Source: Rhodothermales bacterium (GTDB lineage Bacteria; Bacteroidota; Rhodothermia; Rhodothermales; JAHQVL01). From it: a DNA stretch of 64,000 nucleotides. Of the stretch, positions 38,728 through 59,846 are shown piece after piece (position 1 is the stretch's first letter; every line of letters begins with the position of its first letter). The notes under the pieces were generated by a model, which did not search any database, was not told the DNA's origin, and worked only from the letters and a program-made list of their open reading frames with translations. The position numbers and the translations under genes were made by a program. Location: the NCBI GenBank assembly GCA_041391505.1, contig JAWKNW010000002.1, positions 166,897 to 230,896 of the forward strand. Reading direction: 5' to 3'.

Positions 38728-38756
38728 CGGCAATAGTCCACAAGCAAGGCTACTAA

Positions 38757-39887
38757 ATGGCTAATCCAAAGCACCTGGAAATTTTCCAACGAGGAGCTCT
38801 AGAGTGGAATAGCTGGAGAAAAGGTACTGCAGAGTTCCCCGATCTATCCCACCACAGACTGGATGCTAAAGATTACAGTGGATGGGACTTTAACTACTCT
38901 GACCTTTCTTTTATTGACGCGTCAGGGGTTACTTTTGATAAATGCAGTTTTCTGGCGGCAAGACTGTCTGGCGCAAACCTTAGCCATTGCAGCATTATAC
39001 CCACCTCTCTTGTCAACACAAATCTCGAACATTGCGATCTATCGCATGCAATAATAGTTGGCGGCAATTTTCAAGATGCAAAGTTTGAAGACACGATATT
39101 AATAAAGACCAAATTCCAAGAAGGCGTTTGGGCAAGTCCAAATCAAGTAGCAGGCAAAGCTAGTACTGCTTTTATTGATTGCGATCTCAGTAGAGCTCAA
39201 TATCTTGAGACTTGTATTTTTGAAGGAAACGTAATTATTGACAACAGAACTCTTAATCGATCAGTCGATTTATCCACTACCTTCCTTTTAAACGCTGGAC
39301 TTTCAAAGGAAGAGGTCAGAAGTTACTCACACGATGCCTCAATAACGATCATATTCAAAGAGAGTAGCTGGAGAGACTTGGTGCCAATAGAGCACGCGCT
39401 CAGAATCATGGCAATCTATGAGAAGGATTTTGACATCGTCCGATCTGATGATAGGCTCATACTGAAACTGCAGAACCAGAATCAGCTAAATCAAGCACTC
39501 GAAACCATCGGCGCCCTTCTATCGGCACTTCAGGCCTCAAACAGAGATCAATTGTCTTCGATCCGCGTAACGCAAAGAGGATTACCGGATGCGGTCACAT
39601 CAAATGATGAACTCGCCTTTCTCCTCACCTTTTTAATTGACCTATACGAACAGGACAACCATCCGCAAGCTCTACTAGAAGTGGCGGGGAAAGGCATACT
39701 AGAGTCATCTGCGATTGGAAAGTTATTCCAAGGCTTTATTGATTGGACACACTCTCGCCTGAATCCTGACCCTGCCCGCGAAAAGGTCCAACAGATCTAT
39801 AAACGATGCAGAAAATTGTACCCTGAGTTGGACGAATTCAGAAGATTATCGGACTCAAGCACAGATCCAAAGAAACTCAACAGATAG
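38757..39887 (+). CDS. pentapeptide-repeat protein with unknown ~180-aa C-terminal domain (paralog of the 42501 TIR protein)
   Basis: N-terminus LEIFQRGALEWNSWRK followed by A(D/N)LS-type pentapeptide units (LSGANLSHCSI, NLEHCDLSHAII...). The gene is low-GC (about 45% against about 67% in the gene 30 nt upstream, hand counts of 60-nt samples). Confidence 0.8.
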   Translation: MANPKHLEIFQRGALEWNSWRKGTAEFPDLSHHRLDAKDYSGWDFNYSDLSFIDASGVTFDKCSFLAARLSGANLSHCSIIPTSLVNTNLEHCDLSHAIIVGGNFQDAKFEDTILIKTKFQEGVWASPNQVAGKASTAFIDCDLSRAQYLETCIFEGNVIIDNRTLNRSVDLSTTFLLNAGLSKEEVRSYSHDASITIIFKESSWRDLVPIEHALRIMAIYEKDFDIVRSDDRLILKLQNQNQLNQALETIGALLSALQASNRDQLSSIRVTQRGLPDAVTSNDELAFLLTFLIDLYEQDNHPQALLEVAGKGILESSAIGKLFQGFIDWTHSRLNPDPAREKVQQIYKRCRKLYPELDEFRRLSDSSTDPKKLNR

Positions 39888-39918
39888 ATTCGACCTGAGG
39901 GAGTAAACCCAAATAAAA

Positions 39919-39958
39919 ACAAGAGTGTGAGTCTCTGACTGACCTTGCACACTCTTGT
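39919..39958 (+). terminator. 11-bp-stem hairpin downstream of the pentapeptide gene (no clear U-tract)
   Basis: acaagagtgtg (39919-29), 18-nt loop, cacactcttgt (39948-58). Confidence 0.3.
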
Positions 39959-40097
39959 GATCATGTCAAGCTGAGACTCTTAGCCCTTCTTCGTCGGGCT
40001 TTCTTACCAGGCATGACAATGCTTTGGCGTAGAGTCAGCGAAAACTCGGGGACGGGAGGGCTTCAGGATGGCGCCGAGTGGTGTAGTTTCTAAAACG

Positions 40098-41960: not shown

Positions 41961-41973
41961 TGTCATCAACTGC

Positions 41974-42003
41974 CGAATACTGGACTGATATGTCCAGTAT
42001 TCG
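41974..42003 (+). terminator. perfect 12-bp-stem hairpin 14 nt after the HAD stop
   Basis: cgaatactggac, tgatat, gtccagtattcg. It lies exactly at the high-GC to low-GC transition. Confidence 0.4.
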
Positions 42004-42500
42004 AATACCGTTACAATACGACGATCCGAATTTCCAATTTCGTAAAGTTAACAGTGCTGGCCCTTGTCAGCTTATCATCTGAACGACGACATCATAGGCA
42101 CCTGATACGGGGTGCAGAGCAGCATCTCCCCGTAGTCACAAAAGGCTCTAAGGATTCAAGAGATGGGATAGTCACGAAGCGGTTGCTCTACTTTGGGTTA
42201 AGTGGGCACCGTTCAGCCTGACCCTTTCAGTAGTAGTGCATCATGATTTGACGCGCGGTCAAATCACATTTTGCTTTATCCAGAGCGGGATGTTTTCGCG
42301 CACCCCTATCTATGCGACACTGAATAATCCGCAACAACACCATGCACAATGCAATAGACGTCCATTGATAGATTCGAGCAATCATTGTTGACTTCGATCA
42401 TTTGCAAGATCTTGGACAACAATAGCTCATGCGTTCAAAATCCGCATTTATGATTAGTACCGAATGTAGACCGGAATTCTTAAAAGAATAATGAGGCTAT

Positions 42501-43556
42501 ATGCTACAGGCGATACCAGAACACGTTGAACTCCTCAACAGAGGGCCCGAGGCATGGAATGGCTGGAGACAAAATAATCAGACACAACCAGATCTACGTT
42601 TTACTGATTTGTCTGGACGAGATTTATCCGGATACAATCTTGAAAATGTATATCTCGAAGGCTGCAATCTAACCGAAGCAAGACTTGTTTCCCAGAACCT
42701 ACATCAGTCCCAGTTTCAATCAGCCCAACTTCTTCGGACGGACTTCACCGGCTCAGATCTTTCATATGCAGAGTTCTCACGCGCCTATCTCCATGGAGCC
42801 AAATTGGCTTCATGCAATCTAAATAATGCAGATCTCGAGGGGGCAATATTCTTGTTCAGCGATCTACGAGAATCACATCTTGACAAAGCCAGATTCGGCG
42901 ATACTATCTTATTCTCAAGTGACCTGTCCGGATGCAAAAGTCTCGACTCCATTATCCACTATTCGCCTAGCTCAGTCGACCACGGTACACTAAGTCTCTC
43001 TGGAGCACTGCCGCTGGCCTTTCTCAGAGGCGTGGGATTCCCGGACAATTACATTGATTATATCCCTGCATTATTCCATAACGCAATCCAGTTCTACTCG
43101 TGTTTCATCAGCCACTCAACAGAAGATCACGAGTTCGCGCGAAGACTTTATGCGGACTTACAAGACCAAGGCGTTAGATGCTATTATGCCCCCGTGGACA
43201 TGAAAGGCGGCAAGAAAACTCATGAGCAGATTGACCAAGGCATCAAGATGCACGACAAACTGGTATTAATCCTGAGTCCAGCGAGTATCACAAGCAAGTG
43301 GGTCGAAAGAGAAATACGCCGAGCGAGGCATCAGGAGGAGGAAGACGGAAAGAGACGACTTTTCCCTATTAGCTTAGTGCCATATAAAATGTTAAAAAAC
43401 TGGAAGCTCTTCGACTCTGACCTTGTCTTAGATCTCGCAGCCGAAATTCGCGAATATTACATACCTGATTTCACCGAATGGAAGTCACATGATAAGTACC
43501 ACAATGAATTCCAAAAACTGCTCAGGGACTTAAGACCTGATGAGGAGTCGATTTAA
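42501..43556 (+). CDS. pentapeptide-repeat protein with C-terminal TIR domain
   Basis: N-terminus VELLNRGPEAWNGWRQ followed by pentapeptide units (DLSGRDLSGYNLENVYLEGCNLTEARL...). The C-terminus is FYSCFISHSTEDHEFARRLYADLQDQGVRCYYAPVDMKGGKKTHEQI...LVLILSPASITSKWVEREI, a TIR_2-type core that includes the W..E putative catalytic Glu. Low GC. Confidence 0.85.
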   Translation: MLQAIPEHVELLNRGPEAWNGWRQNNQTQPDLRFTDLSGRDLSGYNLENVYLEGCNLTEARLVSQNLHQSQFQSAQLLRTDFTGSDLSYAEFSRAYLHGAKLASCNLNNADLEGAIFLFSDLRESHLDKARFGDTILFSSDLSGCKSLDSIIHYSPSSVDHGTLSLSGALPLAFLRGVGFPDNYIDYIPALFHNAIQFYSCFISHSTEDHEFARRLYADLQDQGVRCYYAPVDMKGGKKTHEQIDQGIKMHDKLVLILSPASITSKWVEREIRRARHQEEEDGKRRLFPISLVPYKMLKNWKLFDSDLVLDLAAEIREYYIPDFTEWKSHDKYHNEFQKLLRDLRPDEESI

Positions 43557-43750
43557 AATAAAGACTACACAAAGGGCATAAAATCACATCAAATTCAGTG
43601 TAGTCTAACTTCAATCGATATCACTCGCTCACACTTCCCGTGCACATGCACAGAAATTGCATTGCTCTTCGACGCATCCCATAAATGACTTACCACGCTA
43701 GGCATATTGGTAGGACCTTGGCATTTCCGGCGAGATGGGTGCACGCAAAC

Positions 43751-43790
43751 GCAAAAAAAACCCGAAGGGTCTTTGAGACCCTTCGGGTTT
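43751..43790 (-). terminator. strong rho-independent terminator (minus-strand orientation), inferred original tRNA-Lys terminator
   Basis: aaacccgaagggtc, tttga, gacccttcgggttt (43758-43790), with 8 A upstream on the plus strand (8 U on the minus strand). It lies directly downstream (in the minus sense) of the 14-nt tRNA 3-prime fragment at 43799-43812. Confidence 0.7.
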
Positions 43791-43798
43791 GAAATGCA

Positions 43799-43812
43799 GT
43801 GCCTCCGCAAGG
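43799..43812. repeat. attL-side direct repeat (copy of the tRNA-Lys 3-prime segment)
   Basis: gtgcctccgcaagg is identical to, and in the same orientation as, 59773-59786 inside tRNA-Lys. Flanking bases are partly similar (cag upstream, ct downstream). Confidence 0.6.
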
Positions 43813-44048
43813 GCTTACCCTGATTTACGCACGTCTGCGCCACTCCACACCTGTCCCGCTGAAACCCTTCGAAATCAAGGGCTTGCGGCAACACATCGCC
43901 TCACAGGATCAAATTTCGAAGGTCAATTCCCCGTAGGCTGCGCTCACATTACAGCCTACATTCTTCCACGCAAATATTTTTGGGAACATCCATTTGTTCG
44001 ACAAGGGAACAAGAAACCAATCCTTATAGAACCGCAGCCTTTGAACTT

Positions 44049-45047
44049 ATGTCGAGATTAACTGCAGAGTACTCAATTGACATCCCCAGTCCCTGCCTGA
44101 TACAGTGGCCGATAGATGAGACGCCTACGATTGACGCAACGATAGACGGCTTCTCTGTACGAATTGTACTGCAACCCGTAAAAGACTGGCGATTGACACA
44201 CAAGGAAGAGAACTACTATGTCACTAGCATTGACTCCCTTGAAATATTCGTTTCGCGCGAAGAAAACGAATCACCACCTCCTTCACGATTGAATGCAAAG
44301 GGAGGAACTGATTTTTCAGACCAATACCCTTTTATCAATGAACGTGCGACTCCTTATCGTGACATCGCTGTAAAGGCTGCCAATCGCCTGTTGAATTTCT
44401 ACAAATATCATCTCCATGCCCCATTGATAGAGCCTATTCCGGAGGGACACAATGGCTTTGCAAACCCTAGATGGTTCATCGATGATGACGAACAGATAGC
44501 TGGTAATAAGGTAACCTTCACAGTCGAATATGTAGCAGGGTTACATGGAGAGTTGAGAACGTATAAATTCAGGCCTGCAGATGAGTCTATTCTTCAGAAG
44601 TACCTGACCAATGTGCCGGACCATAGTCTAGCAGATGAGCTCTTGGCCGATGCGAAATCTGCATGGTTCGAGCACAATTATCGGAGAGCCGTGCTCGAAC
44701 TTGCCATTTGCGTGGAAGTCATGGTGAAGCGGAAATATTTTGAGAAGGCCTCACCAGCGGGAGCAGCATTTGATTACCTAGAGGACAAATCACAGATCAG
44801 AGTGCGTGTGTTGGATCTCATTGATAAAATAGCTTCTGAAGCTTTCAATCGCAGTTTCAAGAATGAGCACAAGAATGAATACAATCATATAGATGAGTTA
44901 TTCAGATGTCGCAACAAGATCGCTCATAGAGGAGAGTTGAAGTTTCGAAATGAAGCTGGTCAAACCGTTGAGGCCGATTCCGACATGGTGGCTCTTTGGT
45001 GGGAAGCTGCCTATTGCTTGAAGGACTGGCTCCATGAGTTATCCTAG
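44049..45047 (+). CDS. HEPN-domain protein (Rx4H), putative RNase; N-terminal ~200 aa unknown
   Basis: The C-terminal helical region reads LADELLADAKSAWFEHNYRRAVLELAICVEVMVKR...IDELFRCRNKIAHRGEL, where RNKIAH fits the HEPN Rx4-6H motif. The ATG at 44049 is preferred. Low GC. Confidence 0.55.
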   Translation: MSRLTAEYSIDIPSPCLIQWPIDETPTIDATIDGFSVRIVLQPVKDWRLTHKEENYYVTSIDSLEIFVSREENESPPPSRLNAKGGTDFSDQYPFINERATPYRDIAVKAANRLLNFYKYHLHAPLIEPIPEGHNGFANPRWFIDDDEQIAGNKVTFTVEYVAGLHGELRTYKFRPADESILQKYLTNVPDHSLADELLADAKSAWFEHNYRRAVLELAICVEVMVKRKYFEKASPAGAAFDYLEDKSQIRVRVLDLIDKIASEAFNRSFKNEHKNEYNHIDELFRCRNKIAHRGELKFRNEAGQTVEADSDMVALWWEAAYCLKDWLHELS

Positions 45048-45263
45048 CATTAAACTGGAGCATGTGGAGGCCATGCATCCGGGGAGGGGGGTACAAATCT
45101 CCAGCACTACCAGCCTCGGGACCGGCGGAGGCAGTCAAATTTTTACGCCGTCAGGTTTCCAGAATCGGTTTTCGCGGCCCAGGGCTCCCCCGTGAATCGC
45201 CGTTTTTCGTGCGGCCAGACGCGATCCACGCGATCCGGGGCCGATTCAAAACCACATTTTTTC

Positions 45264-45938
45264 ATGCCAAAACACCCCAAAAACTATATGAAAAAGCAGC
45301 AACTTTCGACCCTCATCCTGGACGTTCGCGAGCATCCGGCCGTCAAAACGGTGATCGATCGCCTGCGCCGGCTGAAGCAGGACATCCAGCGCCTCAACGA
45401 GATGGTGACCGAACGCCAGGCCCGGGCCACCGAGGCCCGCAAGACCCTGGGGCGCCTCGAGCTCGACGCGGCCATGGGGCGCGACGTCGACGCGGCGGCC
45501 CGCCAAGCGGCCATCCGCGACCTGCAGGCGGCCGAGGCCGACCTCGACGTGGTCACCGAGGAGGCCCAGCGCCGGGGCGGCATCTCGGTCGACGTCGCTG
45601 CCGAGATCGGGCCGGCGATCGAGGAGGCCGGCCGGGAGGCCACCGAGCTCCTGGATCCGGTGCTCCGCGCTCTGACCCAGCAGTACACCGACGGCCTGGC
45701 AATGATGGCATCAGCGGGGCGCGATCTCCACGAGATCTACGGCGCGCTCAGTCACAGCATGCAGGCGACCCATCGGAAGTACGGGGTGCACCAGAACATC
45801 CGCACCCCGCACGACACGCCCGTGCTCGCGATTGGCACCCTCGGCTACGAGGGCGTGTTGCAAGTGATGGAGAATCACCTCCGGACGCTGCGCGCGATGG
45901 GGTACACGGCCACCCAGACGGAGGAGAGCCATGTCTGA
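45264..45938 (+). CDS. hypothetical phage-like protein (coiled-coil N-terminus; possible scaffold-like)
   Basis: 224 aa, high GC. The stop overlaps the start of the prohead protease gene (45931). No family recognised. Confidence 0.5.
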   Translation: MPKHPKNYMKKQQLSTLILDVREHPAVKTVIDRLRRLKQDIQRLNEMVTERQARATEARKTLGRLELDAAMGRDVDAAARQAAIRDLQAAEADLDVVTEEAQRRGGISVDVAAEIGPAIEEAGREATELLDPVLRALTQQYTDGLAMMASAGRDLHEIYGALSHSMQATHRKYGVHQNIRTPHDTPVLAIGTLGYEGVLQVMENHLRTLRAMGYTATQTEESHV

Positions 45939-46605
45939 GAAAGACCTCGAACGGCGCTATTATACCGTCCAACTCCGGGGCGGCCGTGGCCAGAAGACGA
46001 TCACTGGCTATGCGGCCGTGTTCAACGAGCGGAGCCAGGACCTGGGCGGCTTCATGGAGGTGATCCGCCCGGGCGCCTTCCGCCAGGCGATCCTGACGTC
46101 CGACGTCCGCGCGTTGTGGAATCACGACCAGAAGCTGGTCCTGGGGCGCACGAAGGCGGGCACCCTGAAGCTGGCCGAGGACGATCGCGGTCTCCGCATC
46201 GAGCTCGTGCCGCCGGAGAGCCCGATCGGCCAGAACGCGGTCGAGGCCATCGGCCGGGGCGATGTCGATCAGATGTCCTTCGCGTTCTCGGTGGGTAAGG
46301 ATGCCTGGACGAGCCTCGAGGACGGCCGCCAGCTGCGCGAGATCCTGAGCATCAAGCAGCTCTTCGACGTCTCGCCGGTCACGTTTCCCGCATACGCCCA
46401 GACCGACGTCTCCGTCTCTGTACGCAACTTGATGCGGCGCATCCAGACCGATCCCGCGTACGCGGAGCGACTGCGGCGCCTCGAGGCGGCGGAGCGCGGC
46501 AGCGCCTGGGACGGAGCGCCGCGCCGGCCGGCGATGTCGGACGCGCAGAAGATAGCGCAGATGCGGCGCCGGCTCGCCCTGGCCGAGCGCGGCATCGACC
46601 TTTGA
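45931..46605 (+). CDS. HK97-family phage prohead protease
   Basis: ITGYAAVFNERSQDLGGFMEVIRPGAFRQAI....VRALWNHDQKLVLGRT..GTLKL.EDDRGL...GDVDQMSFAF...DVSPVTFPAY, the Peptidase_S78/U35 pattern. Confidence 0.8.
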   Translation: MSEKDLERRYYTVQLRGGRGQKTITGYAAVFNERSQDLGGFMEVIRPGAFRQAILTSDVRALWNHDQKLVLGRTKAGTLKLAEDDRGLRIELVPPESPIGQNAVEAIGRGDVDQMSFAFSVGKDAWTSLEDGRQLREILSIKQLFDVSPVTFPAYAQTDVSVSVRNLMRRIQTDPAYAERLRRLEAAERGSAWDGAPRRPAMSDAQKIAQMRRRLALAERGIDL

Positions 46606-47114
46606 CGGAGACAACCATGGGAAGACGAGGCCCGGCGCCGAAGCCGACGAAACTCAAACTTCTGCAGGGGACGTACCGGAAGGACCGCGCGAACACGAAC
46701 GAGCCGGAGCCCGAGGCGGCCGTGCCCAAGTGCCCCTCCTTTCTCAAGGGCGAGGCGCGCCGGGAATGGCGCCGGATCGTGCCCGAGCTGCAGGAGATGG
46801 GTCTACTCTCCCGGATCGATCGCGCGGCGCTGTGCGGCTATTGCGCGAGTTGGGAGACCCTGGTGGAATCAGACAAGGTGATCAGCGCCGAGGGCAGGAC
46901 GATCGTGAACGCGAAGGGCCAACTTGTTGCGCACCCGGAGATGGCCATCCGGAGCCGAGCGATGGACCAACTGCGCGGCTACATGGTCGAGTTCGGGATG
47001 ACGCCGGCGAGCCGGGCGCGGATCCACGTGCCGGAAAAGGGCAATCTCGCGAATCCGTTCGCCGACATCCTGAAGGACGCGGACGAGAAGGGTCCGGGGC
47101 CGGAGGCGCGATGA
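46602..47114 (+). CDS. phage terminase small subunit, P27 family
   Basis: GRRGPAPKPTKLKLLQGTYRKDR...P.FL...AR.EW.RIVPEL..MGLLSRIDRAAL..YC..W.......I...G........G....P......R....QLR.Y..EFGMTPASR matches the P27 TerS family. Confidence 0.8.
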   Translation: MTETTMGRRGPAPKPTKLKLLQGTYRKDRANTNEPEPEAAVPKCPSFLKGEARREWRRIVPELQEMGLLSRIDRAALCGYCASWETLVESDKVISAEGRTIVNAKGQLVAHPEMAIRSRAMDQLRGYMVEFGMTPASRARIHVPEKGNLANPFADILKDADEKGPGPEAR

Positions 47115-47584
47115 TTTACAGGTTCGGGGCGCCGGAGGCGGTCTACCGCGCGGTGGAGGACATGGCCTGGTGGGTGACGCTCGATCTGGGGCTGAGAGAG
47201 GCGGGCGATCCGCTCCCGATTCCGATTGCGTTCTGGAAGCGGGAGCGGATCGCCGACGTCGTGCGGAGGCAAGGGGGACAAGGCAAGGGAACGATCGGGC
47301 TCTACTGGCCCGACGAGGACCGGATAACGATCTGCGACGACCTCACCCCACGGGAGGCGGCCACGGTCACGGCGCACGAGCTGCGGCATGCCTGGCAGTA
47401 TCGGCACTGGAACGCGGTGTCGATCGCGGAGACGAGCGCGATCGAGCGCGACGCGCGGGCCTACGAGAGGCAGGCTGTGGGGCGATTCTACCAGGCGGAG
47501 CACCGCGAGAAGCCGGCTACAATCTGGTCGAGAGTGTGCGATTGGATGGTGGCGGCCCCTCAGATAGTCAACCTAATCCCCTAA
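47111..47584 (+). CDS. HExxH-motif protein (putative zinc metallopeptidase), coupled to terS
   Basis: 157 aa. TAHELRHAWQY contains HExxH. The ATG at 47111 overlaps the terS stop (ATGA). Confidence 0.5.
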   Translation: MIYRFGAPEAVYRAVEDMAWWVTLDLGLREAGDPLPIPIAFWKRERIADVVRRQGGQGKGTIGLYWPDEDRITICDDLTPREAATVTAHELRHAWQYRHWNAVSIAETSAIERDARAYERQAVGRFYQAEHREKPATIWSRVCDWMVAAPQIVNLIP

Positions 47585-48245
47585 CCATGGTCGAAGATAG
47601 CGGACAAAGGACTACAAGCAGCTTAATCACCTCCCGCAATAGCACGCCACAACTCTCCCCGTACCTCACTGCATCGATTAGAACTGCTGCAGCAAGTTGA
47701 AAAAGAGTTAGATGGAACATGATCATCATCCATGTCGCTTTTCGAGGTCGCTCATTCTTGAGTGCTTCGAAGTATTCATGCCTGAAATCAGCCAGGGCCG
47801 GGTCGAAGGCAAGCACGCGTGTTTTTTCGGGGAGTAGAAAATTTGCTATGCGCCATGCCAACTGACCAGGGGGCTTATGCAGGCGTTTCGGCTCCGTGGT
47901 CGATGGTTGCCCACTAGCCGAGATGCGGAACGATGCGGCATAGTGATCTAGAGAATAGAGGAAGAAAGCCTTAAACCCCTGGGACCGCTCAGGAAGGTTA
48001 TCCTTTTCGAGCTCATGAGCCAGTTCCGCGCGCATCTCAACCAAGCCCGTGAGTACAGGCCTGATAGGATCAAACTCTTCAAGGGTCATTTTCCCGCTGC
48101 TGTAGAGGGCGTATGCATCAAATGCACACACAAGAGCTCTTGATACGAACTCATCATCGTTGTCGATGCATGACAGCGAAGGGTCCTGATTAGTGAGTGA
48201 GCCGATTTCGGCAATCAGTTCTTCCTTTGAGGGCAGTGTCTTCAT
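47568..48245 (-). CDS. hypothetical 225-aa protein with C-terminal TM segment(s), PadR-coupled
   Basis: The ATG at 48245 overlaps the PadR stop (ATGA). The segment LLPEKTRVLAFDPALADFRHEYFEA followed by the hydrophobic WMMIMFHLTLFQLAAAVLI resembles the prefix domain often encoded after PadR genes. Low GC. Confidence 0.5.
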   Translation of the reverse strand: MKTLPSKEELIAEIGSLTNQDPSLSCIDNDDEFVSRALVCAFDAYALYSSGKMTLEEFDPIRPVLTGLVEMRAELAHELEKDNLPERSQGFKAFFLYSLDHYAASFRISASGQPSTTEPKRLHKPPGQLAWRIANFLLPEKTRVLAFDPALADFRHEYFEALKNERPRKATWMMIMFHLTLFQLAAAVLIDAVRYGESCGVLLREVIKLLVVLCPLSSTMVRGLG

Positions 48246-48544
48246 AGTCCGGCAAAGTGAGCGTTCAGCGCCTGAAGTGATGCCATCCAGTGAGTTAAAA
48301 CGCGTGAACCGTCGGCAGTCAGCTGGTAAAGACGTCGTGCTGGACCCATCTCTCCTGGTTTCGATTCAGCCAACCAAGAACGGACAAACCCTTTTTTCTC
48401 AAGACGACTCAATGTGACATAGATAGTACCACGCTTTAGATGTCCCCCAGAATCATCGACAAGTTCCAGACCGTAAGCTTTCTGCTTTGTCGTAAGTAGC
48501 TGAAGGATGATAGCCTCTTTAGGGCTGAGTGAATGTGATTTCAT
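48242..48544 (-). CDS. PadR-family transcriptional regulator
   Basis: MKSHSLSPKEAIILQLLTTKQKAYGLELVDDSGGHLKRGTIYVTLSRLEKKGFVRSW......GPARRLYQLTADG, the winged-helix PadR pattern. The ATG at 48544 is preferred. Confidence 0.8.
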   Translation of the reverse strand: MKSHSLSPKEAIILQLLTTKQKAYGLELVDDSGGHLKRGTIYVTLSRLEKKGFVRSWLAESKPGEMGPARRLYQLTADGSRVLTHWMASLQALNAHFAGL

Positions 48545-48731
48545 GGCGGCGTTGACTCGTTTCGGGATAAGGGTAATATATCTTATTTTGTAAGACATGT
48601 CAAGAGGCAATAGTCCTCCAACACTGACACGCTGAAAAAATGCCCGTCGGGCGGGCTAACGTCAAAGGCGCATCTGGTGTATCTTGGTGATAAGTACCTC
48701 AACAGGGTGAATTACAATTGCCGAGCGAACA

Positions 48732-49535
48732 ATGAAGCTGCATAAGTGGGAAGAGGAAATCTTCTTCAGCACCGTCCGCATAACAATCGAAGACAGTCAT
48801 GGAGAAGATCTTTCGGTCGGCACCGGCTTCATTATGGGCGTCCCGATCACAAATGAGAAGGGCGACGATAAAGATACTGTCGTGCTCGTTTCCTGCCGGC
48901 ATGTCTTTGAAGAAGCCAATAAGCCGATCAGCCTTAAATTTCACCAGGCGAAGCCAGACAAGAGTGGCCCGCAACTCGGCAGCACACCCATACCTCTAAC
49001 CGAGAATTTCGGCGACCACTATTTGCCTCACCCGAACCCCAAAATAGATCTCGCTTGCATAGGTGCCGTTGGCTTGCGATTCCGCGATGACATCTTTTTT
49101 CGATACGTCGGCCCCGGCATCTTGGCAGACCTCACAGAAGATGATATCTATGCGGGCAAAGAGGTGTTGTTCGTTGGTTATCCGGATGGGCAGTATGATT
49201 GGAGCCACAATCTCCCCATCATGAGGTTTGGACACATCGCGACAGTACCAAGCGTCGATTTTCGTGGCGAGCAGGCCTTTCTAATTGATGCACCAGTGTT
49301 TGAAGGATCGAGTGGCAGCGCTGTCTTTAGCATCATCGACGGCAAATATAGGCTCGTTGGTGTAGTGACCGATACGCTGTTCAAGGAGGACAAAGACCGA
49401 TCCAGCGGCCTAAATATCTCATACAGACATTACCTGCACTTGGGGCTGGTACTAAAGTCGACTCTGATCTATGAGTTGCTTGAACATCTCGTGAAAGAGC
49501 AATTTCCTGGCTTTAGTCTCGGAGTTCCGAGATAA
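48732..49535 (+). CDS. cytoplasmic trypsin-like serine protease (Trypsin_2/S1-like)
   Basis: No signal peptide. Candidate triad: His in VLVSCRHVF, Asp in KIDLACIG, Ser in FEGSSGSAVF. GTGFIMG is an N-terminal beta-barrel motif. It is divergent from the PadR operon. Low GC. Confidence 0.7.
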   Translation: MKLHKWEEEIFFSTVRITIEDSHGEDLSVGTGFIMGVPITNEKGDDKDTVVLVSCRHVFEEANKPISLKFHQAKPDKSGPQLGSTPIPLTENFGDHYLPHPNPKIDLACIGAVGLRFRDDIFFRYVGPGILADLTEDDIYAGKEVLFVGYPDGQYDWSHNLPIMRFGHIATVPSVDFRGEQAFLIDAPVFEGSSGSAVFSIIDGKYRLVGVVTDTLFKEDKDRSSGLNISYRHYLHLGLVLKSTLIYELLEHLVKEQFPGFSLGVPR

Positions 49536-49628
49536 AGATCATGGTCTATTTTTGAGTTCTTCGCTGAAGGTCGCGGGGCTTTTTCGTTCGGACACACTCG
49601 AAAGTGGGGCCATACGGTCATGATGCCG

Positions 49629-50282
49629 TTAAGACGGTCGCCTTACTCCATGACCCTTTCCGTTATCCCAAATCAACCCGTCACGGATATCGATCAAACT
49701 ATTCATGTTTTCCTCCTGCACTGTACGCAGAAGCGCGAAGGTGCGCACTTTGGCTCCGGGATAGACTTGCTTGATGAGGCGAGCACACGCTAAAAGGGTG
49801 CTTCCTCTGGTCACGATATCGTCAACGATCGTGATCGAATCGGAGAAGAGCAGTGTCTCGAGGACAGACATGGTCTCCATATGGGACGCAACCGTTGGCC
49901 GTTCATCTCCCCTGCCCTTCGCAAATGAGGAAGATTTGGGGACTGCATAATCCCTTTTCAGGAGCAGGAGCATCTCGGATCCGACGCCATTTTCAATGAG
50001 CGCCTGGCAGAGTAGTTTTGCTGGCCAGACTGTGTCATCGGAAATGAGCGGAGTACTGCGAGGTACAGGTACGAGCACCGTGCCGGCGTGCAGAAACGTG
50101 CTCAGCGGTGGCTCGTGAATATGTTTCCGAATCGATTGGGCAACGATTCTCAGCTCCTCTATTTTTCCAAACTTGACCGCACTCATCGCCTTGCGCGATC
50201 GCTCAATAAGATATGATTCTCCCCTCGGGGAATAAGCCAGATATGACGCGTATTCAATGCTAGAGCGAGAACGGTTCTGCAT
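49629..50282 (-). CDS. ComF-like phosphoribosyltransferase-domain protein (ShosT-like)
   Basis: SITIVDDIVTRGSTLLA is the PRPP-binding loop of type I PRTases, and VLVPVPRS is a ComF-family motif. It overlaps the upstream DprA-like gene by 23 nt. Confidence 0.7.
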   Translation of the reverse strand: MQNRSRSSIEYASYLAYSPRGESYLIERSRKAMSAVKFGKIEELRIVAQSIRKHIHEPPLSTFLHAGTVLVPVPRSTPLISDDTVWPAKLLCQALIENGVGSEMLLLLKRDYAVPKSSSFAKGRGDERPTVASHMETMSVLETLLFSDSITIVDDIVTRGSTLLACARLIKQVYPGAKVRTFALLRTVQEENMNSLIDIRDGLIWDNGKGHGVRRPS

Positions 50283-50943
50283 CGGTTCGCTCCGGCATCT
50301 CGGCTAGAATGTGGTCCATGTTGCCCCTGGAGAGCATGATCGCGCCGTACTTCATCATCTCCTTCGGCCAGTTCAATTCAGGGTTGGTCAGGACGGACTC
50401 CATTATGAGGAGCTGGCGGCCAAGCCTGAGTGTCTCTTTGGCCTGGTGAAGTGTGCCGCTGTTCTCCGTTGCCTCGACAATGACGGTCGCATCGGTCAAA
50501 AGCGACATCGTCAGATTTCGCATCGGGAAATTGGACCGCTTCATCGGATATCCGATCGGGAACTGAGAAACCGCCAGGTGATCGCGCATGATGCGCTCCT
50601 GTAATGATCGATTCTTAGGCGGATAGAATTCGTCCAGCGGAGTGCCAAGAACAGCTATCGTATTCCCTCCCTCACTGATCGCGGTCTCGTGTGCTGCAGT
50701 ATCAATCCCCTCCGCCAGACCACTCACCACGGTGATTCCGTGACGGACGAGTGCCTTGGTGACGAGTTCGGCGCGCTTTAGCCCTTCGGGTGTCGCCTTC
50801 CTGGAGCCAACAACGGAAATCCGAGATCCTCTCCTACACAGATCGATATCGCCCGCAGCATACAGCACAGTGAGCTGGCGCTTTGACTCCTCCTTATTGA
50901 GTGTCCCCAGCAACTCAGCGATCGTGAATTCCATCGTTTCCAT
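50260..50943 (-). CDS. DprA/Smf-like Rossmann (SLOG) protein (ShosA-like)
   Basis: ISVVGSRKATPEGLKRAELVTKALVRHGITVVSGLAEGIDTAAHETAISEGGNTIAVLGTPLDEFYPPKNRSLQERI is the DprA core signature. There are no C-terminal DprA winged-helix or N-terminal SAM extensions (227 aa). Confidence 0.8.
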   Translation of the reverse strand: METMEFTIAELLGTLNKEESKRQLTVLYAAGDIDLCRRGSRISVVGSRKATPEGLKRAELVTKALVRHGITVVSGLAEGIDTAAHETAISEGGNTIAVLGTPLDEFYPPKNRSLQERIMRDHLAVSQFPIGYPMKRSNFPMRNLTMSLLTDATVIVEATENSGTLHQAKETLRLGRQLLIMESVLTNPELNWPKEMMKYGAIMLSRGNMDHILAEMPERTDAEPFSL

Positions 50944-51335
50944 CGTCGTGCACCAGAAGTAGATTTCTTGTGTCGGTCATTGAGAGGAGCGGGCTCCTGG
51001 TGGTCTCAATGGCCTGTGGAGAGCAAGGATCAAGCTCCTGCACGGCAGTGCCAACCATATGTCATACATATATTTGACGTATGGCACATGTTTTTGTTAC
51101 CGGGGTAATATCGTCCATCGATTGATTGGAATACAGGGGGCGGATGCCTTGATTTTGTGAAGTGTTCAATTTGCGCCAAAGGTTGATTCCGCCGTGTGAA
51201 CATGCCGGCCGGGCCGTCGCGCACATACGTGTTTGCGCGCGAACATAGTCAGCCCATTGATGCCGGCAGCCAGGTTTCGGGGTCGCGTCCACAATAACGG
51301 CACATTGACAATCTCGTCCGATTCACCGTGCACAT

Positions 51336-51373
51336 CGGAAAAAGCAAAAGCGCGCCGAACCTCGCCGGCGCGC
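51336..51373 (-). terminator. rho-independent terminator ending the five-gene minus-strand operon
   Basis: gcgcgccg (51350-57), 8-nt loop, cggcgcgc (51366-73). On the minus strand it is followed by cttttgcttttt. It lies 19 nt after the stop at 51392. Confidence 0.6.
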
Positions 51374-51391
51374 CCTTGCGCTGAATCGGAT

Positions 51392-51592
51392 TCACCCATT
51401 GCACGCACATCCAGCTCCTGTCCTGCAGATCGTATCCTTGTCGATGCATGAGTCTCCGCAGGCCTTCCCCTTGCGGCAGACTTTGCAGCATGCACCTCCC
51501 TCCAAGGTATCGCAAGCAGGAAGTACACTCATGGACGCGAAAGCAATCAGGAGGAATGCCCCGATCCTGATGCATGATTTGACTTTGCGCAT
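51392..51592 (-). CDS. small Cys-rich lipoprotein (66 aa)
   Basis: MRKVKSCIRIGAFLLIAFASMSVLPAC lipobox, then GGACCKVCRKGKACGDSCIDKDTICRTGAGCACNG (8 Cys in about 31 residues). Confidence 0.6.
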   Translation of the reverse strand: MRKVKSCIRIGAFLLIAFASMSVLPACDTLEGGACCKVCRKGKACGDSCIDKDTICRTGAGCACNG

Positions 51593-51679
51593 GACGCTCT
51601 CCCAACGTGGACGGCAACATGCGCTGTTGACCACCTTTCTCGTCGTCGCGTGAGTGCCGGCGCCCGAAAAGGCGCATTC

Positions 51680-52006
51680 CTACTTCCGCTTCTTCCGTGC
51701 CCGGTAGGCCGCCTGGCGGCAGGCATCGGAGCAGTACCTCCCCTGCCCCGCTGGATTCGAGCACTTCACCCAGGCGCACACCTTGCGATCGTTCGGAGCG
51801 TACGTGCCCGCCCGCTTTCTCTCCGCGTCCGCCAGGCGCCGGCATTCGGCGTGATACCGCTTCTGCTTGCCCGTGAGCGGCTGGCCGCACCGGACGCATG
51901 GATAGGCTGTCGTACGCTTGCCAGCCCGGGCCGGCGGCGCGGCCACGACGGCTGCGGATCCTTGGGACTTACGGGCCCCCTCTTCAGGGCTCCCCTGCCC
52001 CATCAC
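51680..52006 (-). CDS. zinc-ribbon-like basic protein (108 aa)
   Basis: CVRCGQPL...YHAECRR and CAWVKCSNP...YCSDACRQAAYRARKKRK. The start overlaps the upstream gene stop (ATGA). Confidence 0.5.
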   Translation of the reverse strand: MMGQGSPEEGARKSQGSAAVVAAPPARAGKRTTAYPCVRCGQPLTGKQKRYHAECRRLADAERKRAGTYAPNDRKVCAWVKCSNPAGQGRYCSDACRQAAYRARKKRK

Positions 52007-52791
52007 TCCCCCGGCTCACCCGGCGTGACGTCGATGACGCTGTGATCGATCTCCCCGCCCTTGCTTCCACTATCGCCCGAATGCGGCGGCAGCTGGAGCG
52101 ATCCGAGGCCGAACCACTTCGATGTCAGCTTCGCCGCGCGCTCTACCGGCACACCGATGGACTTGAGCAGATACGGAAGCTCGATGCGCGCCGACTTCTT
52201 GAGCAGACTCCGAGTCCGGCGCGCCATCGACTCCTTCCAGAGCAGATCCATCCGCTGGTGCTGCACGTGCGCCTTGAGCCGGCGGATGTTGCGCCGGTTG
52301 TCGAGCGCCAGCTGCTTCCTGTCCACGACCTCGAGGCGGCCCTCCACCTCCGTCATGTGCTCGGCGCCCGTAGCCTTCCGATCGGCGTTCGTGATCGGAT
52401 CCACGGCCTGGATGAGGAACGCGAAGAGGAACATGCACGGTGCCGACGTCGGCATGATCCAGGCATAGTAGGTGGAGGTCCACCCCCCTGCCCCGCCCTG
52501 CGCCTGAGCAAGGATGCCGGCCGTCGCGAAGAACATGGCGAACAGCCCGGCCCAGAGCGAGACCCGAAGCATCGGGCCGATCAGGCGTCCGTCCTTCCAG
52601 TGCTGGTATACCGCCCAGAGCATGAGCTCCACCGAGAGGATACCGACCAGCACGAAGACGAAGAAGACGACGTTGCCGCTGTGAGTGAAGGCGTTCACCG
52701 TGTTGTGTGCGCCGGAGTACAGGAGGAACAGCAGATGGATCTTATCCAGCGCCGGCATCTCCCGGTTAAGTGTTGCTTTTTCCTGTGACAT
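52003..52791 (-). CDS. hypothetical membrane protein (4-5 TM N-terminal, coiled-coil C-terminal)
   Basis: 262 aa with hydrophobic segments (IHLLFLLYSGAH, VVFFVFVLVGILSVELMLWAV, VSLWAGLFAMFFATAGIL, CMFLFAFLIQAV), then a charged helical region. Confidence 0.55.
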   Translation of the reverse strand: MSQEKATLNREMPALDKIHLLFLLYSGAHNTVNAFTHSGNVVFFVFVLVGILSVELMLWAVYQHWKDGRLIGPMLRVSLWAGLFAMFFATAGILAQAQGGAGGWTSTYYAWIMPTSAPCMFLFAFLIQAVDPITNADRKATGAEHMTEVEGRLEVVDRKQLALDNRRNIRRLKAHVQHQRMDLLWKESMARRTRSLLKKSARIELPYLLKSIGVPVERAAKLTSKWFGLGSLQLPPHSGDSGSKGGEIDHSVIDVTPGEPGE

Positions 52792-52894
52792 GCTTCGAAA
52801 TGTGTTACAGTTTTCTTAGGTGTCGGGAAACTGTCACGCCTGGGCGCCATGGGGCGGGACGCGCAGGCGTTACGGTCGACATCGGGAAGGGGAG

Positions 52895-53371
52895 TCAGGA
52901 GTTGGAGGCGGCAGCGGCGAGCGCCGGCGATGCGGGCGCCATGCCGGCGGCCGAGTAGGGCGCCGCGCGCTCCTCGTAGCGATCGAAGAGCCAGGAGCCG
53001 GCGGCCGTAAGCTGCTCGTAGAGCGAGCGCTGGTAGCGGATCGTCCGGTTCTCGCAGAAGGCGACACGCGAGCCATCGTAAACGACGTGCTTGGTCCACT
53101 CGTGGGCGATGCCTTCGTAGCCCGGGCCGGCGATGCGGTGCACGTTGTCCGCATCCCCGGGGAGCCGGACCTTGAGGGGCTCGAGCTCGCGGTACATATT
53201 GGCTTCGACCATCATGCTGCGCTGATCTTCGACGATCACGTGATCCGGGTGCTCGGTGACGCGGCGTTCATGGATGCAGCCTTCGTAGCCCGGGCCGAAA
53301 AACTTGAGGAGCGGCTTTTCGTTGAGCCGGCGGACGATGGGGGCGGACGGGGTGTGCTTGATCGATTTCAT
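52895..53371 (-). CDS. hypothetical 158-aa protein with duplicated GPGYEG motif
   Basis: FFGPGYEGCIHERRV and IAGPGYEGIAHEWTK suggest an internal duplication. No family recognised. Confidence 0.45.
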   Translation of the reverse strand: MKSIKHTPSAPIVRRLNEKPLLKFFGPGYEGCIHERRVTEHPDHVIVEDQRSMMVEANMYRELEPLKVRLPGDADNVHRIAGPGYEGIAHEWTKHVVYDGSRVAFCENRTIRYQRSLYEQLTAAGSWLFDRYEERAAPYSAAGMAPASPALAAAASNS

Positions 53372-53417
53372 ATCGGGATACCTGTCGGAATTCGGGACGT
53401 GGAAGAGGGAGGGCGGC

Positions 53418-53792
53418 TCAGCGGCCGACGTGGATGGTGTGGCGGTAGCGGCCTGGCGTCATGCCGGCGGCGCGGGCCTGGGGGTCGCGCTCGAGCGGCT
53501 GGAGGCGAGCTGGGCGGACATAGACCGGGCGGCCCTTCGCCACGACGCGCTCGACGCGGGAGAGGGGGAGCCAGAGCACGCGGCCGGCGCCGGCGTCCCA
53601 GATGGCCAGGGCATCGCGCGTCGCCTGGCCGGCCGGAAGGCAGGCGAGGGAGGAGGCGAGCGGATCGTAGTACGCCAGGAGCCGGCGGAGCCGTGTGGCG
53701 TGCCTCACGTAGAGGACGAGCAGGGTGTAGGGAGCTGCTGCGATCGCGGCGAATACCGGCAGGGCAACAGGCGAGAAGGAGATGCGTTGCAT
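53418..53792 (-). CDS. hypothetical 124-aa protein with N-terminal TM segment
   Basis: The ATG at 53792 is preceded by GGAG 6 nt upstream. MQRISFSPVALPVFAAIAAAPYTLLVLYV. Confidence 0.45.
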   Translation of the reverse strand: MQRISFSPVALPVFAAIAAAPYTLLVLYVRHATRLRRLLAYYDPLASSLACLPAGQATRDALAIWDAGAGRVLWLPLSRVERVVAKGRPVYVRPARLQPLERDPQARAAGMTPGRYRHTIHVGR

Positions 53793-53905
53793 GAAGGTCT
53801 CCAAGTTGGGTTAACAGCTTGATTGGGGACAATTGGCCGTTCGGTGTTCTCAGCACCGGGCGGCCTTTTTCGTTTGAATGCCGTATTATACCAGGATTTT
53901 CTTTA

Positions 53906-53928
53906 CTTGTCAAGAATTACTTGACAAG
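53906..53928. promoter_or_regulatory. perfect 9-bp inverted repeat (candidate operator) in the divergent switch region
   Basis: cttgtcaag, aatta, cttgacaag. It contains TTGACA and lies 35 nt upstream of the XRE ATG (53963) and about 115 nt from the divergent minus-strand operon start. Confidence 0.5.
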
Positions 53929-53962
53929 AGTACAAGATAATTTTAACTTGGTATCAATTTTC

Positions 53963-54253
53963 ATGGACGGACCCTTTCAGCTAGTCTCTGGCGAACTCAT
54001 GGACAGCAAGACGATGGCGCAAATGTGCCGAACGCTCCGAGCGATCAAGAAGTGGACGCAGGAGCAAGTGGCGGATCACCTGGAATCTCGATTGGAGAGA
54101 AAGGTGAGCAAGCAGAGTATTTCTTATGCGGAGAACCCGGAATACCCAGGGCTTGATAAGCTTCGCGTGCAGATCATAGAGGAATTGAGCGGGCGGCAAG
54201 TTGAGGGGCCATTCTGGCGACTCAAGGATGAGCCGGCGGAGGTGGAGGGATGA
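53963..54253 (+). CDS. XRE-family helix-turn-helix regulator
   Basis: LRAIKKWTQEQVADHLESRLERKVSKQSISYAENPE is an HTH_3-like pattern. 96 aa. Confidence 0.65.
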   Translation: MDGPFQLVSGELMDSKTMAQMCRTLRAIKKWTQEQVADHLESRLERKVSKQSISYAENPEYPGLDKLRVQIIEELSGRQVEGPFWRLKDEPAEVEG

Positions 54254-55026
54254 AGCCGATCAAGCACGTGCCCGCCCAGGTGCCACGATCGCTCGGCATT
54301 GTGAATCCGGACGATGTCGATGATCTCTGGCAAGCAGGAGGTCCGCCCGGCACGATCGTGAAGGCCTTTGATGCGCGCATCGAATCGGTCTGGGATCAAT
54401 ACGTCGAGATGGCGAAGACTCGCGGCGTCATGGAGCTCCAGTCGGCGCGCGAAGTCTTGATCCGTTGGCGGGCCCAGCTCGAGAAGGATTTCTGGGAATA
54501 CCAGGAATACGATCCGTACGTCCTCGAAACGAACGCGAAGGAAAGGGCTCGCGATGGGGCGGAAGAACCCTCTGAAGCTCAGAGGCGGCTGGAAGAGTAC
54601 CGGGCGGGCCTGTACGAAAAAGCACTCGTCGGATACAAGGAGACCGAATTCCGGTTGAGCGTCCTGGAGAATGTGCTCTGGCGCCTGATCATGTTCGGCC
54701 AGCTGGAGCCCTATGGCCGTGTCGACAAGAAAACACGGCGGGTGATAGCGAGCGACGATGCCGCGAAGGCGAGCCAGGGGGAGAAGGTGGAGTGGGTACG
54801 GGCCTATATCGAGTCGAATCCGCTACTGTTGAACATCTCCACGAATGCGGACCTGTTCCGGGCGACGGCCAAGTTCAAGGACCTAGGTATCGATGAGAGC
54901 ACGATCCCGAAGGGCGTGAGGGGATACTTCAAATCGATAGGCCATCCGATGCCCAGGACACCCTCGAAATTCAAGCAATATTTCGGTATTCAGCCAAGCG
55001 AGGACAGGAAAATTCGGGAAAATTAG
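54250..55026 (+). CDS. hypothetical 258-aa protein (island regulatory/replication module)
   Basis: The ATG overlaps the XRE stop (ATGA). Charged helical protein, no family recognised. Confidence 0.55.
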   Translation: MKPIKHVPAQVPRSLGIVNPDDVDDLWQAGGPPGTIVKAFDARIESVWDQYVEMAKTRGVMELQSAREVLIRWRAQLEKDFWEYQEYDPYVLETNAKERARDGAEEPSEAQRRLEEYRAGLYEKALVGYKETEFRLSVLENVLWRLIMFGQLEPYGRVDKKTRRVIASDDAAKASQGEKVEWVRAYIESNPLLLNISTNADLFRATAKFKDLGIDESTIPKGVRGYFKSIGHPMPRTPSKFKQYFGIQPSEDRKIREN

Positions 55027-55102
55027 GGATTTCCCGTTTCGTCCTGTGCTGAACCGAGAAAGCGTGCCTAGCTTGTTTCGCAACGAACAAACCAAAGGAC
55101 AG

Positions 55103-55297
55103 ATGGAACGCCGAAAACCACGTAGAAAATACTCATATCACCTGGGCGTGCGACTCACCCGGGACATCGAGGAAGCGCTGGCCGCCGAGGCAAACGCGCG
55201 CGGGCTGGACATGTCGGAAGTAGTCCGAGACCTGCTCAAGAAGGAGCTGATCGAGAGCCGGAGCCAGACGCATCGTCTGGCTGAGTTGGCGCAATGA
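55103..55297 (+). CDS. ribbon-helix-helix (CopG/Arc-like) protein
   Basis: YSYHLGVRLTRDIEEALAAEANARGLDMSEVVRDLLKKEL fits beta-alpha-alpha RHH. 64 aa. Confidence 0.6.
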   Translation: MERRKPRRKYSYHLGVRLTRDIEEALAAEANARGLDMSEVVRDLLKKELIESRSQTHRLAELAQ

Positions 55298-55417
55298 AGA
55301 AGGCCCGCGCCGGCGGCAACCGGTTCGGGCCAGATGTCGATTGAGCTACCTTTTTCATGAAAGAAATCGGGCCGACTGCCCTGAAAAGACGTCGGCCCGA
55401 AAAAGCAAAATCAACAG

Positions 55418-58017: not shown

Positions 58018-58027
58018 GGGGGCGTCA

Positions 58028-59694: not shown

Positions 59695-59770
59695 CGGAAT
59701 CGACCACAAACAAGAATCCCCGCAACCACATGCATCGCATGGAGTTACGGGGATCATACCGGGCAATCAG

Positions 59771-59846
<76 letters not shown>

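Follow-up and report, generated by a model that had tools for sequence, protein, structure and literature searches.

The stretch analysed here comprises 64,000 nucleotides of a Rhodothermales bacterium genome (contig JAWKNW010000002.1 of assembly GCA_041391505.1, positions 166,897 to 230,896; hereafter the window) and holds two open reading frames (ORFs) whose proteins begin alike and end differently. ORF A (38757..39887, plus strand, 376 amino acids, intact) and ORF B (42501..43556, plus strand, 351 amino acids, intact) both start with a capped pentapeptide-repeat protein (PRP) module, which is followed by a TIR domain in ORF B and by a region of about 180 residues, here called the X domain, in ORF A. 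This raises the question of what X is and what it does in a position where TIR is found in the neighbouring gene. A first-pass annotation had regarded the two proteins as paralogs that illustrate effector swapping, with X as a novel effector or as a decoy or regulatory partner of the TIR gene. We found X to be a real but very rare domain, delineated here for the first time and annotated in no current library. We give even chances to the reading that ORF A reached this genome horizontally, as a single gene, and belongs to a modular conflict (anti-mobile-element) family in which X serves as a non-catalytic output in place of TIR.

The relationship between the two N-terminal modules was determined by pairwise alignment. 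BLASTP aligned residues 2-182 of ORF A with residues 4-180 of ORF B (E 1e-15, 27% identity) and returned nothing significant beyond this shared region. All three features that the first-pass annotation had listed as common to the proteins were present in both: the N-cap motif (GALEWNSWRK in A, GPEAWNGWRQ in B), a motif in the repeat region (EDTILI in A, GDTILF in B) and the linker (STTFLLNAGLSKEEVRSY in A, LPLAFLRGVGFPDNYIDY in B). The complete divergence that it described after the linker was also borne out, with a TIR_2 match in ORF B (E 1.2e-21, residues 199-293), besides the pentapeptide families of Pfam, and nothing matched in ORF A. The N-cap MANPxHLxILxxGVxxWNxWR opens all 22 database relatives of ORF A; membership was defined by MANPxHLxxLxxGxxxWNxWR at the very start of the protein, and ORF A starts with MANPKHLEIFQRGALEWNSWRK. 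The C-cap/linker, about 50 residues that follow the repeats, aligns across 19 PRP-X and PRP-TIR proteins, A and B included, with the consensus T.F.D.DLS...GL(E/D)(T/S)C.H....ID..TL..S..LP..FL.G.G(L/V), for whose end GLSEE is also given. Residues 150-182 of ORF A fit this block of 19 sequences; L, T, F and L, which are invariant in it, are kept, and serine replaces the proline of 'LP'. The similarity of A and B thus exceeds that of generic pentapeptide repeats, and the module is specific to this family.

What the module carries was then read from the C-termini of its relatives. TIR is found in 10 of the 22 relatives of ORF A, at least three other unannotated C-termini occur on the capped module, and X follows it in ORF A, P0024-29, P0032 and P0036. 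The module of N-cap, PRP and C-cap is a specific one that recombines with different C-terminal domains, TIR being the commonest, and module swapping is well supported. Effector swapping as proposed in the first-pass annotation thus stands at the level of the family but not at this locus. ORF B ranked only 14th among the relatives of the N-terminal module of ORF A, and ORF A 29th among those of the module of ORF B. The two genes are separately acquired members of the same module family and not each other's nearest relatives, so that the term paralog is too strong. The architecture itself is no surprise, since prokaryotic immune proteins are well known to combine one recognition module with outputs that can be exchanged. 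What is new is the definition of the capped PRP module as a specific, recurrent carrier, mostly of TIR, and the delineation of X behind PRP, LRR and response-regulator receiver (REC) domains. A profile search with 56 residues of the linker returned only fragments of 38-100 residues and was useless for a tally of C-terminal domains. Many predicted proteins of 38-100 amino acids (among P0039-P0075) consist of the PRP C-cap/linker block alone, some of them continuing into the first part of a TIR domain; broken or truncated PRP-TIR genes are their probable source.

ORF A comprises four parts. Its N-terminal two-helix cap (38757..38828, plus strand, residues 1-24, MANPKHLEIFQRGALEWNSWRK) is followed by a short, partly degenerate pentapeptide-repeat beta-helix (38829..39197, plus strand, residues ~25-147), the C-cap/linker (39198..39332, plus strand, residues 148-192, QYLETCIFEGNVIIDNRTLNRSVDLSTTFLLNAGLSKEEVRSY) and the unannotated X domain (39333..39884, plus strand, residues 193-376), which consists of a ferredoxin-like unit and a helical bundle. 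The start codon is correctly placed, because the N-terminus MANPKHLEIF... equals the family consensus start. An in-frame TAA directly precedes the ATG. Pfam matched ORF A in the pentapeptide families only (Pentapeptide, E 1.7e-10; Pentapeptide_4, E 8e-10). With membership defined by tandem repeats of A(D/N)LXX whose scores exceed the gathering thresholds of Pfam, the values were 40.7 bits for PF00805 (cutoff 20.2) and 39.1 bits for PF13599 (cutoff 38), and the entries matched in a search of PDB sequences were likewise pentapeptide-repeat proteins. Residues ~190-376 had no match in Pfam, NCBIfam, PADLOC or PDB sequence searches, no PADLOC-DB 2.0 family matched any part of ORF A at E <= 0.01, and a TIR domain was detected by none of Pfam, NCBIfam and PADLOC. 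An AlphaFold2 (AF2) model of the full-length protein (predicted local distance difference test, pLDDT, 75) showed the same four-part layout, with N-cap helices at residues 4-12 and 14-23 (pLDDT ~90), the beta-helix at ~28-160 (pLDDT 80-93, with a low-confidence loop at residues 128-134), short C-cap helices at 163-190 and a separate C-terminal domain at 194-366.

To find relatives of X, residues 186-376 of ORF A (191 residues) were used in an exhaustive phmmer search of 1.84 billion cluster representatives, the set before clustering being ~15 billion proteins. Only 13 other clusters were retrieved (E 4e-29 to 3e-4), most of them singletons, and X was C-terminal in every case. The matches to P0024-P0029 had E values of 4e-29 to 7e-11 and covered query residues ~2-180 of 191; the X domains of P0029 and ORF A are only 27% identical. 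One cluster belongs to another Rhodothermales genome, where the protein (MDZ4700227.1) is annotated merely as "pentapeptide repeat-containing protein". A protein profile search with X returned only ORF A and P0034, within its word-index candidate limit. A scan of genome, metagenome and viral contigs with another profile (A2) gave nothing, and only one later DNA scan of metagenomes added loci, namely three that represent two further members, including a fusion of X to a receiver domain. The family as counted from the phmmer pass and the pattern-limited DNA scans thus amounts to ~16 sequences. Besides the capped PRP module, X is preceded by LRR in P0031 and P0034, by an uncapped PRP in P0035, by an unknown region in P0033 and by a response-regulator receiver in L089/L091 (Response_reg, E 6e-25). 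Because X is C-terminal also behind LRR and the receiver, it occupies an output position, as TIR does, behind PRP, LRR and REC.

The structure of X was modelled with AF2 from a 14-sequence alignment (pLDDT 74, predicted template modelling score 0.70). The model runs beta1-alpha1-beta2-beta3-alpha2-beta4(-beta5) and continues with four or five helices, in the same order as in the full-length run, and consists of a ferredoxin-like beta-alpha-beta-beta-alpha-beta unit (~194-281) and a helical bundle (~283-366). The first-pass annotation had called this region helical, which the mixed alpha/beta and helical model contradicts. In Foldseek searches of PDB and BFVD, no match to X had an E value below 0.01. 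The best, non-significant matches were small ferredoxin-like domains (Mesd, LsrG, MzrA; target TM score 0.46-0.59, E 0.05-0.2), and the others were generic ferredoxin/RRM-like and partial. Sequence searches of Pfam, NCBIfam, PADLOC and PDB gave no match to X, whether made with the single sequence, with all 14 members or with the profile.

Conservation in X is found mainly in the hydrophobic core. Further conserved positions are W20, P25, D47-R48 (in the beta2-beta3 turn), S55, D64, E74, G79-E80, E94, R111, G136 and R165, together with a C-terminal motif, LP...QLPPA. The alignment contains no conserved His, Cys or Lys and no triad-like pattern of His, Cys, Ser or Lys. X is acidic (pI 4.5-5.9 in 13 of the 14 sequences) and has neither a hydrophobic stretch of transmembrane grade nor a strongly amphipathic hydrophobic segment; its acidity and the missing transmembrane stretch argue against nucleic-acid binding and membrane insertion, respectively. 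ORF A is the most divergent member of the family. Of the conserved positions it keeps F15, W20, L23, P25, A29, L30, D47, R48, L53, L63, L73, L105, G136, I162, R165 and P186; how it fares at the positions used as a criterion for X (WG, G37, S55, D64, E74, G79-E80, E94, R111 and the LP...QLPPA tail) is taken up below.

How ORF A came to its present place is evident from its composition and from a related genome. In the window, whose GC content is ~67%, ORF A (43.7%), ORF B (45.8%) and the gene downstream of it, ORF C (45.3%), stand out from flanking genes of 64-67%. ORF A and ORF B are separated by 2613 bp, so that low-GC genes in a high-GC core, 2.6 kb apart, had been correctly described. The further statement that both genes are islets was right for ORF A, which is a single insertion. 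It needs correction for ORF B, which is not a lone islet: its low-GC block also holds ORF C and forms the left end of a 17.8 kb island. The low-GC segment around ORF A (38728..40040, ~1.3 kb, right boundary approximate) lies between genes for a Vgb-lyase-like protein and a 3-keto-disaccharide hydrolase. For the flanking genes, which include one for a large protein with a C-terminal sorting domain of the type IX secretion system (T9SS; read by eye), the closest genomes are metagenome-assembled genomes (MAGs) of Rhodothermales. In the closest of them, the Rhodothermales MAG L001 (76-83% amino-acid identity in the flanking genes), the genes for the T9SS protein, the Vgb-like protein, the 3-keto-disaccharide hydrolase, a HAD protein and tRNA-Lys follow each other contiguously, and neither insertion is present. 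The spacer between the Vgb-like and hydrolase genes measures 257 bp in L001 vs 1614 bp in the window, and the distance from the HAD gene to tRNA-Lys ~150 bp vs 17.8 kb. Because of this gene order and these spacers in a genome that lacks it, ORF A is a single-gene insertion of ~1.3 kb, which contains no second gene, and a recent horizontal acquisition. Target-site duplications or terminal repeats were not found around it. A chimeric assembly behind the GC jump was considered and rejected, because independent contigs bridge the junctions: Logan contigs from three independent wastewater metagenome runs (X1-X3) cross the Vgb/ORF A, ORF A/hydrolase and HAD/island junctions with no mismatches.

The neighbourhoods of the other X genes were inspected next to that of ORF A. 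A TIR gene lies within 5 kb of X in three of the five contexts with enough flanking sequence (the window, L081 and L082-85). L081, a contig of 199 kb and 45% GC, carries two tandem PRP-X genes (P0028, P0025), a PRP-TIR gene and no fewer than four further PRP genes whose C-termini are of other kinds, all of them within 15 kb beside an HTH_17 gene. In L082-85, which stem from Rhodothermales, the gene for P0029 has 44% GC in a 67% GC background (e.g. L082 8814-10046), lies 1.2 kb from a DUF4062-TPR gene and adjoins a gene for a 1460-residue TIR-CHAT-AAA16-TPR (TIR-CHAT-STAND) protein, with a transposase gene nearby. The presence of low-GC PRP-X genes in two Rhodothermales lineages suggests repeated import from low-GC donors. 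In L087 the gene for P0035 follows an Xre-RES toxin-antitoxin pair, with a RecQ-like helicase and an IS21 element nearby, and P0036 adjoins a DUF433/DUF5615 pair and a transposase fragment. In L089 (1300-1887 and 864-1346) the receiver-X gene adjoins genes for a DUF4209 protein (E 4e-12, RNRMAH motif) and an IS200-like transposase (identified by eye). As seen from these neighbourhoods (L081, L082-85, L087, P0036 and L089), X genes occupy variable, mobile, defence-type regions. No conserved partner gene was found beside them, their neighbours being without BLAST or Pfam similarity to each other.

Two observations were made on these contigs in passing. Positions 1-15000 of L081 hold at least seven PRP genes, whose C-termini are X in two cases, TIR in one, transmembrane-containing in others and another unannotated alpha/beta region in two; the PRP-TIR gene is broken up into one ORF at 3569-4192 and another at 2619-3467 (minus strand), either by a frameshift or by a long-read assembly error. 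Further, small proteins of 170-200 residues adjoin X genes in three unrelated loci (L081 11523-12035, minus strand; L082 10323-10925; L091 1191-1715). By eye, each has one N-terminal hydrophobic, transmembrane-like stretch and a beta-rich-looking region, and they share no BLAST or Pfam similarity; they could be a coincidence or a very divergent partner.

These data are best accounted for by the reading given at the outset, in which ORF A belongs to a modular conflict family and X replaces TIR as a non-catalytic output. A role of the family in conflicts with mobile elements is proposed because of the genomic context and of precedents such as the PRP-bearing HalA of the Hailong system. A non-catalytic output is proposed because of where X sits in the protein and because it is acidic, lacks catalytic signatures, has a first half resembling ACT domains and ends in a short conserved motif. 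In the mechanism envisaged, the PRP module, with its rigid and possibly DNA-mimicking surface, would bind an invader-derived or invader-perturbed protein or would mediate assembly; that the module is the sensor is our assumption. Binding or assembly at the module would alter the state of the C-terminal domain, and X would then act non-catalytically, through oligomerisation or contact with a partner protein, rather than by degrading a metabolite as TIR does. ORF A itself may have weakened activity, because it is the most divergent member of the X family.

Several points weigh against this reading. No PRP-TIR or PRP-X member with a demonstrated defence function was found in the literature searched, and ORF A was detected in DNA runs only. 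In L086 the X gene has no telling or defence-related neighbours. The receiver-X fusion is just as compatible with ordinary two-component signalling. The helical half of the X model is of low confidence (pLDDT 40-60), so that fold searches could miss a relative, and the missing catalytic residues, being judged from a 16-sequence alignment, are weak negative evidence. Finally, ORF A departs from the X consensus at ~11 positions (G21R, L36Y, G37E, K44R, S55N, D64E, E74Q, G79D, E80Q, E94A and R111L) and is without the LP...QLPPA tail.

A bolder form of the same idea, which we regard as tentative, holds that X is an unrecognised immune output domain, interchangeable with TIR behind at least three kinds of input module (capped PRP, LRR and REC), and stands for a new, non-NADase mechanism. 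X would then work, for example, by triggered self-assembly or by sequestration of a host or phage factor, and PRP-X and PRP-TIR proteins would be single-gene sensors of one family, with a PRP surface that recognises invader proteins. Should X turn out to serve as an immune output, a position where NADases usually sit would gain a non-enzymatic mechanism. The pair of PRP-TIR and PRP-X would also lend itself well to studying what is sensed by pentapeptide beta-helices.

Three further explanations are each considered improbable. The first, close to what the first-pass annotation had in mind with a novel effector, is that X is a new catalytic or directly toxic domain that, upon triggering of the PRP module, causes death or arrest of the cell. 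It would explain why X shares the position of TIR on the same module and recurs behind LRR and REC, as well as the defence-type neighbourhoods and the conservation of a few polar positions (D47, R48, D64, E94, R111, R165). Against it, the alignment shows no triad-like pattern of conserved His, Cys, Ser or Lys, and no fold or profile match to an enzyme or pore-former was obtained; neither a transmembrane nor a strongly amphipathic hydrophobic segment is available to a pore-former, and several of the conserved polar residues are missing from ORF A. The conservation pattern speaks rather against an enzymatic effector, and a novel effector in the sense of the first-pass annotation is a conjecture.

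Just as doubtful is the view that ORF A is degenerate and has a function only in combination with TIR proteins such as ORF B or a STAND-TIR protein, for which it would be a decoy, a regulator or a partner in hetero-oligomers, through its PRP/C-cap or X part. The co-occurrence of TIR genes within 5 kb of X in three of five informative contexts suggests such a partnership, as the first-pass annotation had proposed, and nothing beyond that co-occurrence was found for its own pairing of ORF A with the TIR gene. The short, degenerate PRP of ORF A, its ~11 changed X positions and the maintenance of tandem PRP-X genes beside PRP-TIR in L081 fit the same view. Yet ORF A and ORF B belong to two different insertions, with only 27% identity between their modules, PRP-X genes move singly, the X genes of L086, L087 and the P0036 contig have no TIR gene nearby, and defence islands would yield co-occurrence with TIR by chance.

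It is likewise unlikely that PRP-X proteins are unrelated to immunity, X being an ordinary signalling output or adaptor and ORF A an accessory regulatory gene that is mobile; in that case the gain would be a minor one in annotation. The existence of the receiver-X fusion, the lack of toxin features in X and the unremarkable neighbourhood in L086 would agree with it. It does not sit well with the strongly foreign GC content of ORF A and its absence from a close relative, with an N-terminal module homologous to that of TIR proteins, with neighbours that are repeatedly toxin-antitoxin, transposase, TIR or STAND genes, or with the extremely sparse and patchy distribution of the family.

That X is a divergent TRADD-N (RRM-like) plus Death-like adaptor, as in bacterial TRADD-N systems that are often tied to PRP, is very improbable: the order of secondary structures is the same (beta-alpha-beta-beta-alpha-beta, then helices) and the literature links TRADD-N with PRP and bDLD3 (PMC7159879, PMC8195603), but hhalign gave X a probability of 1.3% against 12 bacterial TRADD-N and of 0.6% against 12 bDLD3 sequences, the invariant beta2-beta3 Gly-Ser is absent from X (which has S/N-x-D-R there), the domains come in the opposite order, PRP being N-terminal in ORF A, and no TRADD entry was among the 50 listed Foldseek matches. 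Both identities, TRADD-N for the alpha/beta half and the Death-like bDLD3 for the helical half, each compared through an alignment from the supplement of PMC8195603, were accordingly rejected.

Comparison with characterised and uncharacterised systems places the preferred reading, a conflict protein with a non-catalytic output, in context. The closest counterparts of ORF A are the PRP-TIR proteins (ORF B, P0003, P0005, P0007, P0009, P0015 and others), with homologous N-cap, beta-helix and C-cap/linker, the same overall size and the same single-gene, patchy, mobile distribution. They differ from it in their C-terminus, a TIR domain predicted to be an NAD+-consuming or signal-making enzyme, to which X has no similarity. 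They are uncharacterised and labelled in databases merely 'pentapeptide repeat' or 'TIR domain', and no paper describing them as a defence family was found in the literature searched. PADLOC and NCBIfam group the TIR domain of ORF B with defence-type TIRs, and P0015 is a full-length relative of ORF B with 50% identity.

In HalA of the Hailong system a PRP region is fused to an ion-channel effector in an anti-phage protein (PMC13586616, PMC13276650). ORF A is similar in being a fusion of PRP to a putative output domain and has a weak NCBIfam HalA match in the repeats only (E 0.0012; 18 bits at a cutoff of 250, which leaves it outside Hailong). It differs in that HalA is a membrane channel working with the nucleotidyltransferase HalB, whereas ORF A has neither a transmembrane segment nor a HalB-like neighbour. 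The right-handed quadrilateral beta-helix is shared with the PRPs Qnr, MfpA and AlbG, which are stand-alone proteins of ~200 residues with no output domain; NCBIfam scores of ORF A for Qnr/MfpA were 14-27 bits at cutoffs of 240-500 and thus place it outside these families. Qnr, MfpA and AlbG mimic DNA and bind gyrase, which may be a precedent for the binding of DNA-processing enzymes by PRP surfaces.

Likeness to Thoeris is limited to ORF B, in which models of ThsB-type and other defence TIRs match the TIR domain; PADLOC gave no match for ORF A, and no ThsA-type gene (SIR2 or Macro, SLOG) was seen beside ORF A or ORF B among the ORFs examined. The TRADD-N/Death-like systems (Kaur, Burroughs, Iyer and Aravind, 2020-2021) are, like ORF A, modular conflict proteins, with an RRM-like adaptor, helical adaptors, repeats and variable effectors including TIR, but they show no profile similarity to it, have the opposite domain order and carry a Gly-Ser signature that X lacks. 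The first half of X has the beta-alpha-beta-beta-alpha-beta topology of ACT/RAM-like and small ferredoxin-fold regulatory domains; sequence or significant structural matches to these are absent, and X has in addition a conserved helical half and a C-terminal proline motif. In architecture and presumed function, ORF A resembles the "constant module plus variable effector" proteins described by Kaur, Burroughs, Iyer and Aravind and the HalA-type fusions.

Expression of ORF A was considered from its surroundings. The stop codon of the same-strand Vgb-lyase-like gene lies 29 nt before the ATG of ORF A (window 38725-38759). ORF A is probably transcribed by read-through from this host gene. A scan for promoters and terminators around ORF A found no more sites than in shuffled sequence, Bacteroidota-type promoters being outside the model of the scan; in the interval upstream (38725-38759) no promoter-like site was seen. 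Rfam matched no RNA family around ORF A or ORF B, the sole match being a sub-threshold NsiR1 at 43752-43810. The spacer 3' of ORF A (40048-40265) contains a long imperfect palindrome with 46-nt arms at 76% complementarity and nested arms of 31 nt and 14 nt; it has no Rfam match and may be a REP-like (repetitive extragenic palindromic) element of the host.

ORF B resides at the left end of an island of ~17.8 kb (41961..59770) that is integrated at the 3' end of tRNA-Lys(ctt) (59771-59846, minus strand). ORF C (43980..45047, plus strand, 355 amino acids) is directly downstream of ORF B in the same low-GC block. It has weak HEPN matches (RiboL-PSP, E 0.0027; Swt1, E 0.032) and the motif RCRNKIAH; as a gene of the surroundings it may act beside ORF B, either as a further effector or as its partner. 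The island further encodes a lone S78 prohead protease (45931-46605), a DUF6782 metallopeptidase-like protein (46730-47584), a trypsin-like peptidase (48732-49535), a DUF3987 protein (55418-57295) and an integrase (58345-59691). A phosphoribosyltransferase-like gene (49629-50282, minus strand) adjoins a DprA/SLOG-like gene (50260-50943, minus strand), and this pair (49629-50943) recalls nucleotide-centred conflict systems. In its content the island resembles a satellite or a prophage in decay. A search for another att copy of the tRNA-Lys 3' end, made with a 24-nt probe and allowing three mismatches at most, found none. Just past tRNA-Lys lies a tandem array of a 19-nt unit (60387-60872, 25.5 copies, 85% matches), followed by a second array of a 24-nt unit (61003-61106, 4.3 copies), and a comparable repeat tract occupies the same place past tRNA-Lys in L001.

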